A stretch of DNA of 64,000 nucleotides from Vicinamibacteria bacterium (GCA_965116805.1 OZ220713.1:2041853-2105852), one strand, 5' to 3'. Counted from the first letter of the stretch, positions 16,932-25,606 are shown. Translations and numbers: made by a program. Notes: generated from the sequence alone by a model not told the origin.

Positions 16932-17163
16932 ACGGGCAGGTGCCCCAGGGCCCGGGTTCGGCGCTGTCCGGTCCCCCGCTCCGGACTAGAGCGAGCCGAG
17001 CGTGGCCCAGGGGTCTCCGCGCAGCGTCCTGAGCCCGGCGATCGCCGAAGCGAGGAGCATCAGTCGACAGCGACGGAGGCTCCCGTCGATATCGGATTCG
17101 AAGTCCTGTTCGGCCGCGCCGTAGGACCGACGTCAAACCGAAGCGGCGATGGGCGCGGTTGAT

Positions 17164-17436
17164 CTATTTCGGCACGTGGTGCCGCCGATATGCCTGACTC
17201 CGGTGGAGGACGGCTTCGATGGCCACGGAGCCAGTCTGCGGATCATGTCGGTAGATCACGCGCCAATCCCCGACCCGGAGCCGCGCCATGTTGCCCGGCC
17301 CCTTCAGTCTCTTCACATCGCCCTGATCTTGCTCGACATAACGGTCGATCGCCTCAACTACCCGAATGCGAGCCGGCCGATCAAGCCGCTTCAGGTCGCG
17401 AAGCGCGCGATTCGTATAGGACGCGCGTTCGGTCAG
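17164..17436 (-). CDS. RelE/ParE-family type II toxin lacking a canonical start codon (possible pseudogene, or CTG start overlapping the antitoxin stop)
   Basis: Reverse frame gives LTERASYTNRALRDLKRLDRPARIRVVEAIDRYVEQDQGDVKRLKGPGNMARLRVGDWRVIYRHDPQTGSVAIEAVLHRSQAYRRHHVPK*, a classic RelE/ParE core. The in-frame upstream stretch back to a TGA contains no ATG/GTG/TTG. Confidence 0.5.
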   Translation of the reverse strand: MTERASYTNRALRDLKRLDRPARIRVVEAIDRYVEQDQGDVKRLKGPGNMARLRVGDWRVIYRHDPQTGSVAIEAVLHRSQAYRRHHVPK

Positions 17437-17687
17437 ATGCCTAGTTCTCGCTTCACCTCGGCCGAGGTGTGAGTCCGTCCGGCCATGCGATCCGCGCGGG
17501 CCTCTTCAATCGCTCGCAGCGCCTCACCGCTCAACTCGTCCTCATCGAGTGGCAGCGTCGCCACCGGCCTGCGTCCGAGACGGGGTTGCCTAGCCAAGGA
17601 TTCAAGCACCCTCGTGGCGAGGGGGGTCTGCGTATCCGGGAGTCGATCCACCAAGTCGTGGAGCCTGGCCCTGGCTGCCCCTTTCAT
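17433..17687 (-). CDS. Type II antitoxin (RelB/ParD-like or addiction-module component) paired with the RelE/ParE toxin
   Basis: 84 aa, ...LPLDEDELSGEALRAIEEARADRMAGRTHTSAEVKRELGI*, acidic C-terminal region typical of antitoxins. Its stop overlaps the toxin's first codons. Confidence 0.6.
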   Translation of the reverse strand: MKGAARARLHDLVDRLPDTQTPLATRVLESLARQPRLGRRPVATLPLDEDELSGEALRAIEEARADRMAGRTHTSAEVKRELGI

Positions 17688-17800
17688 GAGCCGAATCTAG
17701 CACATGGATCACGGCTGAACCCGATGGTCCGGCACGGAAGAGAGGGCCCGGTGCTTCCACGATGGGCCGCCTGGGTTGAGACCGGTCTGCCTGACGGCGA

Positions 17801-18619
17801 TCACGTCCCCCCACGCGAAGCCCAGGGCTCCGGCGCCCACAGTCTCCAGCGAGTGATGAGCCGGGGGCACTCCAGCGCCGCATCCAGCTGTGTATTCCCA
17901 GCGGTGAGGCGCTGGCGGCAGGATTCCAACAGTTCCGGGCCTGACGGATCGCGTTCGGCGAGAAAGCCCAGCCGCTTGAAGACCGCACCGTTGCCGAGCC
18001 GGACGGCGTAGCGGATCAGGAGGTCGTCGTCGCGGCGGTCCGACTTGAGGTAGACCGACAGACAGTCGGCCACGTGCTGGATTCCGCCTCCGAGTTCCGG
18101 ATCGGCGAGCATGTCCAGGATGGTCCGGTGCATGTCCGCCACCGCGACCCGGGTTCTGCCACGCCAGACGCTGGCGGTCCCGAAGATCTTTCCCGGGCGG
18201 ACGTGGGTGACGCTGAACTCGGCGCCGTGGCAACGCCGGCTCTTCTGCCGCACGGTCTGCGCCGTCATGACCACGATGTCACGGAAGATCTGTTCGGTCA
18301 GATCCCAGTGCTCGGCGGCCGTGCGGCCACCGATGTAGGCCGGATCAAAGAGCGGCGGCACCAGGATCCACGGATCGTCCAGCACACGGATGCTGCCGAG
18401 CGTGGTGAGTGAGGCAGGGAGGTAGACGCCGCGGGCTGCGCGCCGCAGCCATGCCTGTTTCACCCAGCGCGAGAGCAACTTCGCAGCCTCGGCGCGCGAC
18501 ACCTCGAGGGCGTTCACGACATCCTCTATCCGCACGACGTCCCCGGCTTCGTTGAGGACGGCGCTGAGGCGACGGCGCGATTCCGGAACGACGGGATCCG
18601 ATGTGGTGGTGGTTCTCAT
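17801..18619 (-). CDS. AbiEi-like (COG5340) antitoxin/transcriptional-regulator domain protein
   Basis: N-terminal wHTH ...DVVRIEDVVNALEVSRAEAAKLLSRWVKQAWLRRAARGVYLP.. followed by AbiEi_4-like ...FDPAYIGGRTAAEHWDLTEQIF....VTHVRPGKIFG.... No cognate AbiEii nucleotidyltransferase downstream. Confidence 0.6.
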   Translation of the reverse strand: MRTTTTSDPVVPESRRRLSAVLNEAGDVVRIEDVVNALEVSRAEAAKLLSRWVKQAWLRRAARGVYLPASLTTLGSIRVLDDPWILVPPLFDPAYIGGRTAAEHWDLTEQIFRDIVVMTAQTVRQKSRRCHGAEFSVTHVRPGKIFGTASVWRGRTRVAVADMHRTILDMLADPELGGGIQHVADCLSVYLKSDRRDDDLLIRYAVRLGNGAVFKRLGFLAERDPSGPELLESCRQRLTAGNTQLDAALECPRLITRWRLWAPEPWASRGGT

Positions 18620-19172
18620 GGTCGGCGAATCACGGAGGCTACGTCCTGGCGTGGCGGTGGCGTCTGCGTCTACTCGTGACTTCAGTTGTCCGGAACTACA
18701 TTACATTGTCATTTGATCGCACTAGTCGGGAAATTCAGACATCTCCATATATCCCAAGTCAATCCTGTCCAACTCGACACACCGTTGATCTCTCCCGCAA
18801 TCCGACCGGTCACCGCGACCCGGTCATTCCCGGATCAAACGCAAAACCTGTGGTTGGTCAGCGGTTTGTGGGGTTGTGTGCTCTCTCTAATATCGCTTTC
18901 CAGTCAAATAGATAAACCACGTTTTAACAATGACTTAGCGTGCTTTGTGCTCCAGGCGAGCGTTTCCGGTCAAGTAAACGCGGGTCGTCGGCTCGGAGTT
19001 CGGACGGGAGCAGCCGGCACCCGGCGGCCGCACCGCCGCCGGATCTGGAGCGCGAGCTCGCTCAGGCCGAGACTCAGTGCGATTCGGACTGATTCACTTC
19101 AGGACTGGAGGGCGGCAAGAGTCGCCACCAGGACGAATCCGGCAGGAACCCCCTGAAACAATACGCCGCCGC

Positions 19173-21992
19173 ATGCGCCTCTCCTGGAACGAGATCCGCG
19201 CCCGCGCCGGGTCCTTCGCCCGCAAGTGGGCGGACGCCGGATACGAGAAAGGCGAGACCCAGAGCTTCTACAACGACTTCTTCCGCATCTTCGGGGTGCG
19301 CCGGGAGTCGGTGGCCCGCTACGAGGAGCGGGTGGAGAAGCTCGACGACACCAGCGGGTTCATCGACCTCTTCTGGCCGGGAGTCCTGATCGTCGAACAG
19401 AAGAGCGCCGGGCGCAACCTGTCCGCTGCATACGAGCAGGCGGGAGGCTACTTCGACGCGCTGACGGAGACCGAGCGGCCTCGCTACATCCTGGTCAGCG
19501 ACTTCCAGCACTTCGAACTCCACGACCTGCTCCAGCGGGACGAGGTGTCCTTCCGGCTCGACCAGTTGCCGGAACACGTCGAGAAGTTCGGCTTCATCCT
19601 GGGTGTCGCCAGCCGCACCTTCCGGGACCAGGACCCGGCGAACATCGAGGCCGCCGAACTGGTCGGGAAGCTCCACGATTCGCTCCGGGACGCCGGCTAT
19701 CCGGCCCACGACCTCGAACGCTTCCTCGTCCGGATCGTCTTCTGCCTGTTCGCCGACGACACCGGAGTCTTCGAGCCCCGGGACATCCTGCTCGACTTCC
19801 TGGAGACGCGGACCCGCGAGGACGGTACGGACCTCGGACCACTGCTCGCCCAACTCTTCCAGGTGCTGGACACCCCCGAAGACCAGCGAATCGCAACTCT
19901 GGACGAGGATCTGGCCCGCTTTCCGTACATCGACGGCGAACTCTTCGCCGCCACCATCCGGATTCCAGCGTTCACCGCGGAGATGCGGGAGCACCTGCTG
20001 ACCGCCTGCCGGTTCAACTGGTCAACGATCTCCCCGGCGATCTTCGGGTCGCTTTTCCAGTCGGTGATGGACCCGGTGGAGCGTCGGGCGCAGGGGGCGC
20101 ACTACACCACCGAGCAGAACATCCTCAAGGTCATCGAGCCGCTCTTCCTCGACGATCTGTGGGAGGAGTTCACCCGGATCAGAGCCCTCCGCCGCGATCG
20201 GCTTCGGCGGCTGCGCGAGTTCCAGGAGAAGCTCGGCAGGCTCACTTTCTTCGATCCGGCGTGCGGCTGCGGCAACTTCCTGGTGATCGCGTATCGCGAG
20301 CTTCGGCGGCTGGAAGTCGAAGTACTCCGCGAGCTCCTGGGGAGGGAGGAACAGCAGGTCCTCCAGTTTGACGTGAGTTCGCTCTCCCGGCTCGACGTAG
20401 ACCAGTTCTACGGGATCGAGATCGGGGAGTTCCCGGCCCGGATCGCCGAGGTGGCTCTCTGGATGATGGACCACCTGATGAACAACGAGCTCAGCCTTGA
20501 GTTCGGTCAGTCCTACGCCCGCATCCCCCTGAAGCGCTCGCCGCACATCCACTGCGGGGATGCGCTGGAGATGGACTGGGAGGATCTGCTGCCGGCGAAG
20601 GAGTGTTCGTTCGTCTTCGGGAATCCCCCGTTCGGAGGCGCCAAGTTCCAGTCACCGGCGCAGCGGGCGCAGGTCCGGCGGATCGCCGCGCTCGGGGGCT
20701 CCGGCGGCACACTCGACTACGTGACCGCGTGGTTCATCACAGCGGGTGGATATATCCAGAAGAGCGGCCCGCCGGGCGAGCGGGCAAGGATCGGCTTCGT
20801 GGCGACGAACTCGATCACCCAGGGGGAGCAGGTGGCGCAGCTCTGGCCGATCCTGTTCGGCCGGTGCGGGCTTGAGATTGCCTTTGCCCACCGGACGTTC
20901 GCGTGGGGTTCGGACGCGCGGGGCATGGCGCATGTACACGTCGTCATCGTCGGGTTTGACGACCGGGCGGGGATTCCGGCGACGCGGCGGCTGTTTTCGT
21001 ACGACGACGTGAAGGGGAATCCGCATGAGAGTGGCCACGCGGTCTTGTCACCGTATCTGTTCGATGGCGGGGGACTGGCCGATCCGCATCTCGTGGTGCG
21101 GGAGGAGAGCCGGCCGATCAACGGGATGTCACAGTTGGTGACGGGCACCCAGCCGCTGGAAGACGGTCATCTCACTTTCTCGACCGAAGAGAGAGCGGTC
21201 TTTCTGTCTCGAGAGCCGGCCGCCGCGTCAATTCTCCGTCCGTTCCCGGGAGCACGTGAGTTCATTCGGCGTCAGACTCGGTGGATCCTTCACACCGGCA
21301 ACCTTGAGCCACAGGAACTCCGTGCTTTACCGCTCGTGCGCGAGCGACTGAGATTGGTGCGCGAGTTCCGCTCGAAGAGCAAGCGCACTACGACGCGGAA
21401 ACTGGCGGACTACCCGAGCATGTACGGTGTCACCGTGGTTCCGAACTCACCGTTCCTCGTGGTGCCTCAGGTGAGTTCAGAGCGGCGCGAATACGTGCCA
21501 ATCGGTTGGTTGGAACCTCCGACAATCCCGAGCGAAAAGCTGCGACTCCTTCTCGATGCGTCTCTTGCCGACTTCGCTCTCCTGACATCAGCAATGCATA
21601 TGGCATGGATGCGCGCGGTCACGGGCCGATTGGAGAGCCGTTACATGTATTCTGTGGGAGTGGTCTACAACACCTTCCCGCTACCTCCGAAGGACGCGGA
21701 TCTGGGTCCCCTCGACCCGCTCGCCCAAGCTGTCCTCGATGCCCGCGCCGCTCATCCCAACGCCACTCTCGCGGATCTCTACGACCCGGACCTCATGCCG
21801 GTGGACCTCCGCCGTGCCCACGAGGCACTCGACCGCGCCGTGGACCGTCTCTACCGGCCCCGCAAGTTTGCCTCCGAGCGGGAACGCGTCGAGCACCTCT
21901 TCACGCTCTACGAGCGGATGCGCACGCCGCTGGCCGCCACCACCACGAAGAAGCGCAAACGCCGTCGGACTAGCCGCCTATCCGCCATTTGA
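19173..21992 (+). CDS. MmeI-family type IIL (IIG) restriction-modification enzyme: single-chain endonuclease + N6-adenine methyltransferase + TRD (939 aa)
   Basis: MRLSWNEIRARAG... aligns by eye along its length with MmeI as I remember it (not database-checked). PD-ExK nuclease IDLFWPGVLIVEQKS; MTase motif I FFDPACGCGNFLVIAYRELRRLEVEVLRELL; motif IV FVFGNPPFGG; downstream ...ATNSITQGEQVAQLWP... and ...SERREYVPIGW.... The first Met of the track ORF (19077) is rejected in favour of Met33 (19173). Confidence 0.85.
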   Translation: MRLSWNEIRARAGSFARKWADAGYEKGETQSFYNDFFRIFGVRRESVARYEERVEKLDDTSGFIDLFWPGVLIVEQKSAGRNLSAAYEQAGGYFDALTETERPRYILVSDFQHFELHDLLQRDEVSFRLDQLPEHVEKFGFILGVASRTFRDQDPANIEAAELVGKLHDSLRDAGYPAHDLERFLVRIVFCLFADDTGVFEPRDILLDFLETRTREDGTDLGPLLAQLFQVLDTPEDQRIATLDEDLARFPYIDGELFAATIRIPAFTAEMREHLLTACRFNWSTISPAIFGSLFQSVMDPVERRAQGAHYTTEQNILKVIEPLFLDDLWEEFTRIRALRRDRLRRLREFQEKLGRLTFFDPACGCGNFLVIAYRELRRLEVEVLRELLGREEQQVLQFDVSSLSRLDVDQFYGIEIGEFPARIAEVALWMMDHLMNNELSLEFGQSYARIPLKRSPHIHCGDALEMDWEDLLPAKECSFVFGNPPFGGAKFQSPAQRAQVRRIAALGGSGGTLDYVTAWFITAGGYIQKSGPPGERARIGFVATNSITQGEQVAQLWPILFGRCGLEIAFAHRTFAWGSDARGMAHVHVVIVGFDDRAGIPATRRLFSYDDVKGNPHESGHAVLSPYLFDGGGLADPHLVVREESRPINGMSQLVTGTQPLEDGHLTFSTEERAVFLSREPAAASILRPFPGAREFIRRQTRWILHTGNLEPQELRALPLVRERLRLVREFRSKSKRTTTRKLADYPSMYGVTVVPNSPFLVVPQVSSERREYVPIGWLEPPTIPSEKLRLLLDASLADFALLTSAMHMAWMRAVTGRLESRYMYSVGVVYNTFPLPPKDADLGPLDPLAQAVLDARAAHPNATLADLYDPDLMPVDLRRAHEALDRAVDRLYRPRKFASERERVEHLFTLYERMRTPLAATTTKKRKRRRTSRLSAI

Positions 21993-22170: not shown

Positions 22171-23262
22171 GTGACGGACATCATTGAGCCGGCACAGAGT
22201 GAACTGATGGTGTACCGCCCCCTCTCGCAAATGGTGCAGCTGTTCGTGCTGCCAGAGATTGATAGACGCGTCGATTCCGGCGCGATCCCAGAAGTCGATC
22301 TGCCGCTGCAGCTGCTTCAGTTCAGGGTCGTCGAGCCCGGACCCAGGCATACCGTTGAACTCAATGACGAGGTTCAGCTCACGTTTCGTGTCAAGGCGAA
22401 GAAGGCCGTCAAAGCCGGGGAGCCCGTCCACCTCGACGAGATTGACGCTGCCTCCACCGTGCTACTGCCGCCCATCGTGGATGGGACGCCTAGGTCGTTC
22501 TTTCTCCTCCTATCGGCGTTCCTAAACCTGCAGACGGCGTTTGACTTTACCCAGGGCGGACCTGGTCCCATCGGACCACCAATGCTGTTTCCGGCTGCCC
22601 AGTTGGTCCAGATGCAGCGATTTCTTGAGACGGTACAGCCAGTGGAGAAGTTCAGGGAGTTGGCACGGCTCAACTGGCCACCGGCACCGGGGTACTTCCC
22701 TAGTGTCATCGCGCATGCGCATGAGAATCCCGACGATCTGAAGAGGCCGCAGTTCGCGGCCAAGGTTGCAGATACGTACGATGCGGACTTCTGGCAGCAA
22801 CAGCTGGATCTCTGGGGGCAGACCAAACTCTTTCCAGGCCGGTCGCAGTACATCCGTAAAGCCGTCGACGAGTATTGCGAAGACGACTGGATAAGCTCCA
22901 TTTGCGTCATCGTCCCTCAGTTTGAGGGCATCATCTCGGACTACCTACGGACTGTCGGTGAGGAGCCGAAATCCAGGTTCAAAGAAATGGTGTCTCAGCT
23001 CCGGACGCTTGTGTTTTCGCGGAAAGTATTGCTATTCCCGTCGCCTGTCCTTGAGTTGATTCTCGGATTCCTCGAAACGGGAACATTCTGGCAGAACGCG
23101 GATAGCATCGACGATCCGAAACAACAGATCAACCGGCATGGAATTGTCCACGGAGTATTCACCGGTTTTGAGACAAGGGACGTAGCTCTAAAGTACCTGG
23201 TACTCGTCGATGCGCTCGCGCTGCTGATTTTGCACGACAGGATTGTGACCGGCACTCTCTAG
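22171..23262 (+). CDS. Hypothetical protein (363 aa), low-GC, no recognisable family. C-terminal R-x4-H (RHGIVH) could be a HEPN-like motif.
   Basis: GTG start with RBS. Clean 1.09 kb ORF in a roughly 52% GC segment. Convergent with the 4-TM gene. Confidence 0.7.
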   Translation: MTDIIEPAQSELMVYRPLSQMVQLFVLPEIDRRVDSGAIPEVDLPLQLLQFRVVEPGPRHTVELNDEVQLTFRVKAKKAVKAGEPVHLDEIDAASTVLLPPIVDGTPRSFFLLLSAFLNLQTAFDFTQGGPGPIGPPMLFPAAQLVQMQRFLETVQPVEKFRELARLNWPPAPGYFPSVIAHAHENPDDLKRPQFAAKVADTYDADFWQQQLDLWGQTKLFPGRSQYIRKAVDEYCEDDWISSICVIVPQFEGIISDYLRTVGEEPKSRFKEMVSQLRTLVFSRKVLLFPSPVLELILGFLETGTFWQNADSIDDPKQQINRHGIVHGVFTGFETRDVALKYLVLVDALALLILHDRIVTGTL

Positions 23263-23327
23263 CCGCATGGCTCCAGAGACCGAAGTCGGTCGCAGTCCGC
23301 CATGTGCAAGAGCGTTGGTGCACGTCG

Positions 23328-24194
23328 TCAGTCGCGATCTTCCGTCCTCGATAGCGTGTCATTCCAAACGCGCTGCAACGGTTCCTCGTAATAGCGCTTA
23401 AGGCTGTCCGGGATAAGTGGTCCTTCCTTACGTGCCCACTGATAGCCTGAGACGGCAAGAATCACGTCAAGATTGGACACACTGCCGACTCGATCCAGGA
23501 GCTCTGTGAGCCTCTTCATTGATTCCTCCGCCGCCACGCTCAACCGATGGTACTTCGTCCCTAGATTCACAGCGTCCAGAAGGACAAGTAGAGAAATGGC
23601 CAAGCCATAACTGCGCCGGAGGATTCCTGAGGCACCCATAGTTGCTCGCTCGTCCTGTACTTCCAGTCCCCCTAGCGTTATAGCTGAGACGGAAACCACT
23701 AGCGCGGCCCCCGTCACGATGAAGACAATCAGCGATGCCTTCTTGGCTAGCTGCTCGGTCCACCAGGCGGACTCGCGTTCCATTCTGATGAGCAGAGAAT
23801 GTGAGGGCTCGCCCGACGCTTCATAGTAATCGTCGTAGCTCACAGAGGGACCTTGTCTCGGCAACCTGTTGACATACTTCAACTTCACTCTGGCCAACTT
23901 CGCCGCGTCAATCTTGTACCCGATGCCACGGCTTAGTTCGATAGCCCGAATGGTCCATTCCGCGTCTTCCCGATAGTTTTCTGACCTCCAAACACAGATC
24001 CGCCCGGAGATCGCAAACACGACCGCACCCAGCGGTCCGACCCACCCTTGCCATCCAATCGACCATGCGATCGGAACGGCCACAATAGCCAGATAGCCAA
24101 GACTGACGCCGAAACCCCACAACAGCTTTGCCCGAGAGGACACCCAGGTCCGGAGGTGGTGAAGTTGCTTCAAATCTGGCTCACCAATGCTCAT
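23328..24194 (-). CDS. Four-TM membrane protein (288 aa), candidate membrane-disrupting effector (SLATT/4TM-like)
   Basis: TM pairs LLWGFGVSLGYLAIVAVPIAW / WVGPLGAVVFAISGRICVW and ASLIVFIVTGAALVVSVSAITLGG / LAISLLVLLDAVNLG separated by soluble segments. Low GC. Downstream of the nucleotidyltransferase on the same strand. Confidence 0.7.
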   Translation of the reverse strand: MSIGEPDLKQLHHLRTWVSSRAKLLWGFGVSLGYLAIVAVPIAWSIGWQGWVGPLGAVVFAISGRICVWRSENYREDAEWTIRAIELSRGIGYKIDAAKLARVKLKYVNRLPRQGPSVSYDDYYEASGEPSHSLLIRMERESAWWTEQLAKKASLIVFIVTGAALVVSVSAITLGGLEVQDERATMGASGILRRSYGLAISLLVLLDAVNLGTKYHRLSVAAEESMKRLTELLDRVGSVSNLDVILAVSGYQWARKEGPLIPDSLKRYYEEPLQRVWNDTLSRTEDRD

Positions 24195-24423
24195 GTCAGT
24201 CTAAGTTCGAGGTGTAAAGAAAGGCTGTCGCGCAAATCGTGTCCACTTCAAGCGAGCATGCTCAGAGACCCGGCAATCCTACGACCCGCTATGTTCTCAG
24301 GAACTCCTCGATACGCAAGCGATGCTGGAGAGCAACGGGCCCACGATGCTTCTAGACGGCGTGGTTGCCGACCTCCAGCCGTTGCCCACAGGCTGCTCCA
24401 CTCGCCAGTCACGACACAGCAAT

Positions 24424-24453
24424 CGCGAGGAGTACCCGCGCGAGGAGTACCCG
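24424..24453. repeat. Perfect tandem duplication of a 15-bp unit CGCGAGGAGTACCCG x2 in the spacer between the nucleotidyltransferase and 4-TM genes
   Basis: ...aatCGCGAGGAGTACCCGCGCGAGGAGTACCCGgtgatg... read directly. Confidence 0.9.
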
Positions 24454-24495
24454 GTGATGACTAAATGGTCCGAGAGCCCTCGCCGCCCACCGCGC

Positions 24496-25368
24496 TTATT
24501 TGTAATAGCTCGGGAACTGCCCATCGAACAGTAAGTTCCACCAATAAAAGGCGTCCTTGATTTCCCCGCTGCTCTCCGCCGCCCTCGCCTTCGCGGCCCG
24601 TGAGGCTGCGGTTGCCAGCTTGCTCTTCGCCTCCTTCAGCTGTGCCTCCGTCCTGGATGGTGAGATGTACCCCGATACACCCATGGGATCTTGGATCTTG
24701 GCCAGTCCGATCCGTTGGAGCTCACGGAACACGCGCTCTACGTCAATCGCATACACGATCGACGACTCTCCGGACGCGTACTTGGCCACGCGGAGCTCCA
24801 GATAGAACGACAAGACCGGCACATCGCGGAAACACTTCCAGGCCTTGATGAATCTCACGAGCGGCTTCACCTTGTTCGACAGCGATTGGTCAATGCCCCG
24901 GACGTAACTGTTATGTGCGTCCGGACTCGACTTCATCCAACCCCCATCGCAATCCGGGATCTCGTACACGCGATGGTCACCACTCTTCCCGACGTAATCC
25001 GCCGGCGTCACCTCCGTCGTCTCCTTCTTGTCGGTGCCGAACGGCACAACCACTGCGGGACAGGCCGACCGCACACCCGTGTCGGGGAATCTTTCGGCCA
25101 GTGCGTCGCGTAGCTCCGTTAGCGAAGTCGTCGAGTTCCGCTTTAGCTTGTCCGTTGGGATACTCGCCATGTAGTCAACGTCGCTGTACCCAGAGATCGA
25201 CGTGCCGTTGCCGAACGATCCCGTACGCCAGAAGCGTTTGAGTCCAAATTTGGAGCGGATGCACTGTTCAATCGACTTGCGGTGCCTCGTGGCGGCGGCC
25301 GTTTCGCCACTCGACGGAGTGAGCTTGGTCAGAAAATCTCGGAATCCCTCATCAACTGTCCTAGGCAT
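24496..25368 (-). CDS. cGAS/DncV-like (CD-NTase / SMODS-type) nucleotidyltransferase, 290 aa
   Basis: Pol-beta NTase motif WRTGSFGNGTSISGYSDVDYM (GS...[DE]h[DE]h); third acidic strand VYEIPDCD; followed by the OAS/cGAS-type helix ...LVRFIKAWKCF.... Low GC. Confidence 0.65.
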   Translation of the reverse strand: MPRTVDEGFRDFLTKLTPSSGETAAATRHRKSIEQCIRSKFGLKRFWRTGSFGNGTSISGYSDVDYMASIPTDKLKRNSTTSLTELRDALAERFPDTGVRSACPAVVVPFGTDKKETTEVTPADYVGKSGDHRVYEIPDCDGGWMKSSPDAHNSYVRGIDQSLSNKVKPLVRFIKAWKCFRDVPVLSFYLELRVAKYASGESSIVYAIDVERVFRELQRIGLAKIQDPMGVSGYISPSRTEAQLKEAKSKLATAASRAAKARAAESSGEIKDAFYWWNLLFDGQFPSYYK

Positions 25369-25533
25369 TACATTCTCCCGTGAAGTTCAACGGTCTCGCG
25401 ACGCAAGGCCGGGCCGCAGCTAGTGTTCCCCTTCAGGCCTCGCATCCAAGAGTCGACCTCCAGGGAAGAACGCCTAAGTACGCCCTTTCGCCGTTCGAGG
25501 GCGTCGTAAGGGCTCTGCATCAAGTCGCAATCG

Positions 25534-25562
25534 GAGCGATAGCGGATTTCGCTATCGCTCCG
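25534..25562 (-). terminator. Perfect 12-bp stem hairpin (GGAGCGATAGCG-GATTT-CGCTATCGCTCC) 45 bp downstream of groEL; probable operon terminator (no U-tract)
   Basis: Inverted repeat read directly. It sits between the groEL 3' end and the nucleotidyltransferase start. Confidence 0.4.
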
Positions 25563-25606
25563 CGCCAAAACGAATGATCTGAGGCGTAGCCGGTGGTTAC
25601 CTTGGA

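Follow-up and report, generated by a model that had tools for sequence, protein, structure and literature searches.

A type I CBASS cassette with a divergent 4TM effector, beside an independent HEPN-type gene, in a Vicinamibacteria genome

The type III cyclic oligonucleotide-based antiphage signalling system (CBASS) of Pseudomonas aeruginosa, as Ye et al. 2020 reportedly described it, comprises Trip13/Cap6, HORMA3/Cap8, HORMA2/Cap7, CdnD and an effector, and is said to work through cAAA and NucC. In the type I operon EcCdnD12-4TM of E. coli, a cGAS/DncV-like nucleotidyltransferase (CD-NTase) and a transmembrane (TM) effector restrict phage at least 10,000-fold, and this restriction depends on the catalytic aspartates (bioRxiv 10.1101/2023.05.21.541620). 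Effectors named S-4TM take their name from the published expansion SMODS-associating 4TM (bioRxiv 10.1101/2023.02.27.530311). Here we describe a locus in a 64,000-nucleotide stretch of a Vicinamibacteria bacterium genome (GCA_965116805.1 OZ220713.1:2041853-2105852; hereafter the window). The original prediction had grouped a cyclase gene (cyc290), a gene for a protein with four TM helices (TM288) and a gene for a 363-aa protein into one module, a candidate minimal CBASS-like or novel antiphage system. Our analysis makes it very likely that the locus holds a type I CBASS, formed by cyc290 and TM288, together with an independent HEPN gene, and that both lie in a lower-GC defence island that was gained by horizontal transfer and sits next to groESL. 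The locus is known biology, a type I CBASS beside a HEPN gene, and not a novel three-gene system; the pairing of cyclase and 4TM protein is not new either, as this architecture has already been validated experimentally in EcCdnD12-4TM.

The product of cyc290 proved to be a CD-NTase with a SMODS domain, as had been predicted. It scores 47.9 bits against Pfam SMODS (PF18144; gathering cut-off 26.5), and the PADLOC Cyclase model PDLC00776 aligns with residues 1-289 of its 290 (E = 3.7e-118). The nearest solved structures, 6P82, 6P8U and 6P8J (E = 1.8e-20, full length), are those of P. aeruginosa CdnD (PaCdnD), an enzyme of clade D (PMC8096243). On the basis of this best solved match, rather than of a phylogeny, cyc290 appears to be clade-D-like. 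All of the motifs named in the prediction are present, namely GSFGNG (50-55), DVD (63-65), IPDCD (137-141) and RFIKAWK (172-178). All 14 relatives compared conserve G50-S51 and D63/D65, and D139, which supplies the third acidic residue (in IPD, 137-139), aligns with its PaCdnD equivalent. Judged from these alignments, the catalytic GS...DxD...D of cyc290 is intact, and synthesis of a cyclic oligonucleotide is predicted. A genome scan for cyc290 returned 16 related loci in very different phyla, with cyclase identities of 84% in metagenome-assembled genomes (MAGs) of Alphaproteobacteria and Pseudohongiella, 79% in a Spirochaetia MAG and 54% in a Bathyarchaeota MAG, a distribution that fits horizontal spread.

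Profile comparison and modelling identify TM288 as a divergent S-4TM-type CBASS membrane effector from a rare subfamily. Its hydropathy profile has four segments in a 2+2 pattern (24-40, 52-68, 156-172 and 197-213), and in its AlphaFold2 model (pLDDT 77) the long helices pair into two hairpins (8-45/52-88 and 132-179/189-234), beside which there are shorter cytoplasmic helices. When the TM288 subfamily was aligned by hhalign with classical cyclase-adjacent 4TM proteins, taken from behind related cyclases and matching the PADLOC 4TM model at E = 1e-43 to 1e-73, the two were homologous over 236 columns (95.3% probability, E = 2.2e-8). Pfam S_4TM is found at E <= 1 in 19 of 22 subfamily members (best E = 5.8e-9), and a SMODS gene or its remnant lies directly upstream of the effector in all ten of the other loci examined. 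The predicted two pairs of TM helices, and the role of the protein as membrane effector of the cyclase, are thus borne out by hydropathy, hairpins, 4TM profile homology and linkage to SMODS. The subfamily is rare, with 34 clusters among 5.8 billion proteins. Its loci were obtained by exact-protein look-ups, while a metagenome scan with the effector alignment yielded no confirmed locus. Searches with TM288 of PHROGs and, by tblastn, of a plasmid collection gave no match.

The cassette has groEL on one side and the HEPN gene and a MmeI-type gene on the other. It consists of a cyclase gene and an adjacent effector gene on the same strand, without Cap2/Cap3, HORMA/Trip13 or Cap9/Cap10-type genes, and this is the gene set of type I. 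Absence of HORMA and TRIP13 had been part of the prediction, and tblastn of the entire window indeed found no homologues; with Trip13-like, Cap8 and HORMA2 proteins and a 285-aa cyclase from type III loci (cyc285) as queries, nothing else was found in the 64 kb. The HORMA and Trip13-like genes that would place the operon in type III are thus missing from the window. Cyc290 and TM288 are a type I CBASS, in agreement with the minimal cyclase and 4TM system that had been proposed. A phage cue would switch on the HORMA-independent cyc290 and, by analogy with EcCdnD12-4TM, this cue may be a virion-assembly protein. Active cyc290 would then make a cyclic oligonucleotide that activates TM288, the two TM hairpins of which would disrupt the inner membrane, thereby aborting the infection.

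All three open reading frames (ORFs) lie exactly where they had been predicted (Table 1), and each has many full-length homologues. Between the window and L001, one of the related loci, identities at codon positions 1/2/3 are 0.89/0.93/0.70 for cyc290 and 0.75/0.78/0.61 for TM288. As first and second positions are far better kept than third positions, these are genuine genes under purifying selection. The similar third-position identities of the two genes, along with the different identities at first and second positions, indicate that the cassette co-diverges as a whole while the effector is under weaker constraint. The effector tree is star-like, with 56-68% identity. A recent spread of cyc290 into older operons was considered, given cyclases that are 84% and effectors that are 57-67% identical, and was rejected because third-codon divergence is similar in both genes and constraint explains the gap.

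The history of the cassette can be read from ten other loci with the effector subfamily, which formed our synteny sample. Cyc290, spacer and effector stand alone in the window, in L003 (110-bp spacer) and in L096. In L001/L002 and L092, genes for a Trip13-like AAA protein, Cap8, bacHORMA_2 and cyc285, a CdnD-like cyclase, come first and are followed by cyc290, a spacer of about 280 bp and the effector. L093 also has the type III module followed by the cassette, with cyc290 frameshifted, and in L091 cyc290 is interrupted, with IS1595 transposase genes in the gap, and cyc285 persists as C-terminal fragments only. In L094 and L095 the effector comes directly after the type III module. The 285-aa cyclase of these loci is related to PaCdnD (E = 1e-37) but shares only 23-26% identity with cyc290. 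In L096 an ORF of 280 aa precedes the cassette, but it was discarded as a possible partner, since it is Arg/Ser-rich, has no homologues and is probably a spurious high-GC ORF.

The cyc290 copies linked to the TM288 subfamily form a tight clade (82-88% identity) that nests among cyclases partnered with classical S-4TM proteins, in which the two genes abut or overlap. The cyclase of L004 is the sister of this clade, with 77-79% identity. Among the sister cyclases of L004-L014, a 4TM-type gene comes directly after the cyclase wherever the downstream gene was examined, and in most of these loci type III genes are not seen. The exception is L008, where a complete effector-less type III module lies directly upstream of a cyc290-like gene and a classical 4TM gene.

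Because the same cassette comes after a type III module in L001/L002 and L092, and is decayed in L093 and L091, the cassette of the window might be a leftover from a composite type III CBASS, stranded by the loss of Trip13, HORMA and CdnD and no longer able to work alone. The unusual spacer and the absence of a recognisable promoter would fit such a history. We consider it unlikely, however, as both ORFs are intact and under purifying selection, and the cassette stands alone in three unrelated genomes (the window, L003 and L096). In addition, the cyc290 clade nests within cyclases that directly precede a 4TM-type gene, mostly as plain type I pairs, and decay elsewhere strikes cyc290 in the type III context, not the free cassette. 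We infer instead that the two genes make up an autonomous type I unit, onto which type III modules docked in some lineages, where cyc290 was sometimes lost later.

In the composite operons (L001/L002, 2962-8031; L092, 730-5867; L008, 2213-7715; also L093 and L091), a HORMA-dependent cyclase and a second cyclase may feed one 4TM effector, which would amount to a two-input CBASS. A text search of the literature for dual-cyclase CBASS operons found no relevant paper. Tentatively, and with the balance of our judgement leaning slightly against it, the observations can be joined in a wider scenario. The cassette would be a portable arm onto which effector-less type III modules (Trip13-Cap8-HORMA2-CdnD) docked to give two-input operons, the window would keep the autonomous ancestral state, and the 363-aa protein would found a HEPN superfamily of about 1,550 clusters of single-gene abortive-infection RNases.

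Two further arrangements were seen among the cyclase relatives. In L014 (4982-5980; a Microscillaceae MAG) a second SMODS-domain gene, of 332 aa, lies directly before the cyc290-like and classical 4TM pair, and no type III genes were detected with this tandem. Helix-turn-helix (HTH) and M78-peptidase genes occur upstream of type I cyclase relatives, fused in L005 (4067-5302; 411 aa), as M78 only in L006 (4495-5754) and as HTH only in L008 (5351-5872). They resemble the CBASS transcriptional regulators CapH/CapP; the window has no such regulator.

The third gene of the predicted module encodes a stand-alone HEPN protein that belongs to a large superfamily without a name. Its product matched nothing in Pfam, PADLOC, NCBIfam or PHROGs, and tblastn of plasmid and phage collections gave no match. 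A word-indexed search found 130 homologues at E <= 0.001, and an exhaustive profile search extended the family to 1,548 cluster representatives, the second tier of which holds full-length relatives sharing PQxEG and NRHxxxHG. The suggestion that QINRHGIVHG contains a HEPN-type R-x4-H motif held up well, with an unvarying motif and a match to the HEPN fold. All 45 family members have R322-H-G-I-V-H327 unchanged, and even in 56 distant relatives the Arg and the second His never vary. The AlphaFold2 model built from the 45 sequences (pLDDT 90.4, pTM 0.88) combines a long helix at the N terminus with a beta-domain (50-125) and a C-terminal region that is entirely alpha-helical, the last in keeping with the all-alpha fold of HEPN domains. 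Foldseek against the PDB found nothing significant, for the N-terminal beta-domain included, and a PDB profile search with the family alignment found nothing. In the distant tier of 56 relatives, no Pfam model covers the core and the two HEPN matches are insignificant (E ~0.085).

Within this distant tier (among P0203-P0289), a Fic/DOC domain (E = 5.5e-16) was seen in one protein and TPR repeats in another. A few members, of 741, 526 and 577 aa, far exceed the length of the core, a hint that sensors or effectors are swapped as modules in the superfamily.

The 363-aa protein is a candidate single-gene abortive-infection RNase, with a defence role and a trigger that are conjectural. Most likely it would act as a dimeric R-x4-H RNase, and its N-terminal helix and beta-domain may hold it inactive until a phage trigger releases it.

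The HEPN gene is independent of the CBASS and no part of it. It is absent from 16 of 16 cyclase loci and from six of six further effector loci and, viewed from the other side, none of 65 HEPN-family loci has a cyclase or a TM288/4TM homologue. No neighbour cluster recurs in more than three of the family loci, and the three loci with a common neighbour have nearly identical gene spacing, which suggests near-identical copies. The neighbours include SIR2, HerA, a retron reverse transcriptase with PRTase, ThsB TIR, type IIG and type II restriction-modification (R-M) genes, MADS components, PDC candidates, RES toxins and integrases. Such heterogeneous surroundings, rich in defence and mobility genes, are the pattern of a stand-alone defence-island gene. 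The notion of one three-gene system, in which the HEPN protein would serve the CBASS as regulator or second effector, has the adjacency of the genes as its starting point and is largely refuted by this synteny; the HEPN gene is also convergent to the CBASS operon and thus outside it, and its product gave no match to CARF, SAVED or any other known nucleotide-sensor fold. We hold that notion to be very improbable, and the other option that the prediction had left, a separate abortive-infection gene, is the one favoured by the synteny data. It is just as improbable that the HEPN gene is an accessory of the MmeI-type R-M enzyme, for although it lies 178 bp downstream on the same strand and a few family loci have IIG or methyltransferase (MTase) neighbours (PADLOC IIG models each match 2 of 144 neighbour ORFs), tblastn with the MmeI protein of the window matches one other family locus (L049, a weak MTase), no neighbour cluster extends beyond three loci, and GC content and third-position GC differ (64.6% and 0.82 for the MmeI gene, 56.7% and 0.70 for the HEPN gene), which suggests separate acquisition.

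Several points weigh against the type I CBASS and independent HEPN gene that we favour. The match of cyc290 to NCBIfam NF041117 (CBASS_cyclase_b) is 116 bits (E = 2.3e-33), below the curated equivalog cut-off of 200 bits, making cyc290 a relative and not a member of that equivalog group. TM288 itself has no Pfam or NCBIfam match (none to Pfam S_4TM, PF18159, at E <= 1), its match to the PADLOC 4TM effector model PDLC00724 is weak (E = 5.9e-6), and no nucleotide-sensing domain is recognisable in it. The 301-bp spacer is atypical, as sister type I genes overlap or abut, and without a promoter consensus it makes expression coupling uncertain. The cassette comes after a type III module in roughly half of the contexts sampled, which leaves its autonomy in the window an inference. 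For the HEPN protein, RNase activity, trigger and defence role are all predictions, and the neighbour survey is descriptive and not a statistical test of enrichment.

Table 1. Positions of the genes and other elements of the locus, counted from the first nucleotide of the window
Feature	Position	Strand	Basis or remark
363-aa HEPN-type gene	22171-23262	+	ORF
TM288, 288 aa, S-4TM-type effector gene	23328-24194	-	ORF
cyc290, 290 aa, CD-NTase gene, first of the CBASS cassette	24496-25368	-	ORF
Cyclase-effector spacer, non-coding, 301 bp	24195-24495	-	
Perfect tandem duplication, 15 bp x2 (CGCGAGGAGTACCCG), within the spacer	24424-24453		TRF score 60, 100% match
Leader 5' of cyc290	25369-25606	-	
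Hairpin, perfect 12-bp inverted repeat GGAGCGATAGCG-AAATC-CGCTATCGCTCC	25533-25561	-	Directly after the groEL stop codon
MmeI-type IIG R-M enzyme gene	19077-21992	+	Five Pfam MmeI domains; PADLOC REase_MTase_IIG 1128.7 bits
AbiEi-family gene	17801-18619	-	PADLOC AbiEi PDLC02271, E = 2e-121

These genes sit in a horizontally acquired defence island of lower GC content, made up of AbiEi, the MmeI-type R-M gene, the HEPN gene and the CBASS and lying next to groESL, with groEL and groES on the cyclase side. GC content is 56.7% in the 363-aa gene, 55.9% in TM288 and 58.3% in cyc290 (57.4% over the three-gene stretch), against a window average of 69.1% and flanks of about 70%. The drop of about 12 points that the prediction had reported is real, while its figure of 50-53% was too low by comparison with the measured 56-58%. 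The adjoining R-M gene was correctly recognised, and the MmeI-type IIG gene lies immediately upstream of the module. The AbiEi gene may be an orphan antitoxin or regulator, or its toxin partner may have decayed, as downstream of it (16932-17800) there is no ORF of AbiEii size, only short ORFs without domain matches. Between the divergent AbiEi and MmeI genes, 18620-19076 has a GC content of 56.9%, as low as that of the CBASS and HEPN genes; probably it is either a seam of the island or a promoter region.

Both the gap that separates the cyclase gene from the TM gene and the perfect tandem duplication within it were found as described. The spacer that the prediction had singled out is unusually long, but it is inherited and without detectable function, and the duplication is confined to this genome. 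Homologous spacers of 273-297 bp are present in L001, L092, L091 and L093, where the 15-bp unit is single-copy; the duplication is private to the window and looks like a recent replication slip. In the 110-bp spacer of L003, about 40 nt of the 5' end and about 70 nt of the 3' end are kept, and this 3' portion of about 70 nt, before the effector start, is the one stretch that every locus has kept. Spacer identity between the window and L001 is 0.63, about that of synonymous sites. The spacer was examined as a possible functional element and rejected as such. No ORF is common to the loci (the indels are not multiples of three and the frames differ), no RNA structure is supported (the RNAalifold covariation term, +3.16, is unfavourable), no promoter-like or terminator-like site was seen, and hidden Markov model (HMM) searches of six-frame translations found no remnant of a 4TM or cyclase gene. 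An Rfam scan of 16-28 kb at E <= 1 gave one chance-level snoRNA match, and none in the spacer. We treat the spacer as inherited non-coding DNA in near-neutral drift, with no detected function, that uncouples the two ORFs. The leader of cyc290 contains the hairpin of Table 1, followed by about 165 nt and then a GGGAGA Shine-Dalgarno-like sequence before the ATG. It aligns loosely with the cyc290 leaders of L092 and L093 and has no sigma-70 consensus. The hairpin is probably the groESL terminator, marking the boundary between core genome and lower-GC island.

The more interesting leads lie beyond the claim of a trio, in the composite operons that share one 4TM effector and in the unnamed HEPN superfamily. 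As the cassette is found alone, behind effector-less type III modules or decaying, it shows the recombination of CBASS parts and offers a natural series for asking whether a single effector can serve two different cyclases and whether 4TM effectors respond to the same signal. The family of the 363-aa protein, a large HEPN superfamily without a Pfam model, merits a profile model in defence-annotation tools, and, since it occurs next to a wide variety of defence systems, it is a reasonable candidate for a new single-gene antiphage RNase.

Set beside known stand-alone HEPN proteins of abortive infection and toxin systems (AbiV, the C-terminal HEPN of AbiA, HEPN/MNT toxins and RnlA/LsoA), the 363-aa protein has no detectable sequence similarity to any HEPN family named in Pfam, PADLOC, NCBIfam or PHROGs, and its gene has no adjacent antitoxin or MNT partner. 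Its long N-terminal helix and beta-domain are unique among named stand-alone HEPN proteins. The CBASS of the window resembles the P. aeruginosa-type III systems in that related genomes carry the same effector subfamily at the 3' end of the type III gene set, often as the whole cassette of cyc290, spacer and effector (L001, L092, L094 and L095). It differs from them in that the window has no type III genes, cyc290 shares 23-26% identity with the type III cyclase, and the effector is a membrane protein and not the NucC nuclease. The closest likeness is to type I CBASS with a clade-D cyclase and a 4TM effector, since the nearest solved relative of cyc290 is the clade-D PaCdnD and TM288 is profile-homologous to classical S-4TM. 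In contrast to those systems, the effector of the window comes from a rare, divergent subfamily of 34 clusters, and its gene is 301 bp from that of the cyclase where the genes of sister systems overlap or abut. Like EcCdnD12-4TM, from which Cap2/Cap3, HORMA and Trip13 are likewise absent, the system of the window comprises two genes, a CD-NTase gene and then, on the same strand, a gene for a protein of about 290 aa with a 2+2 arrangement of TM helices.

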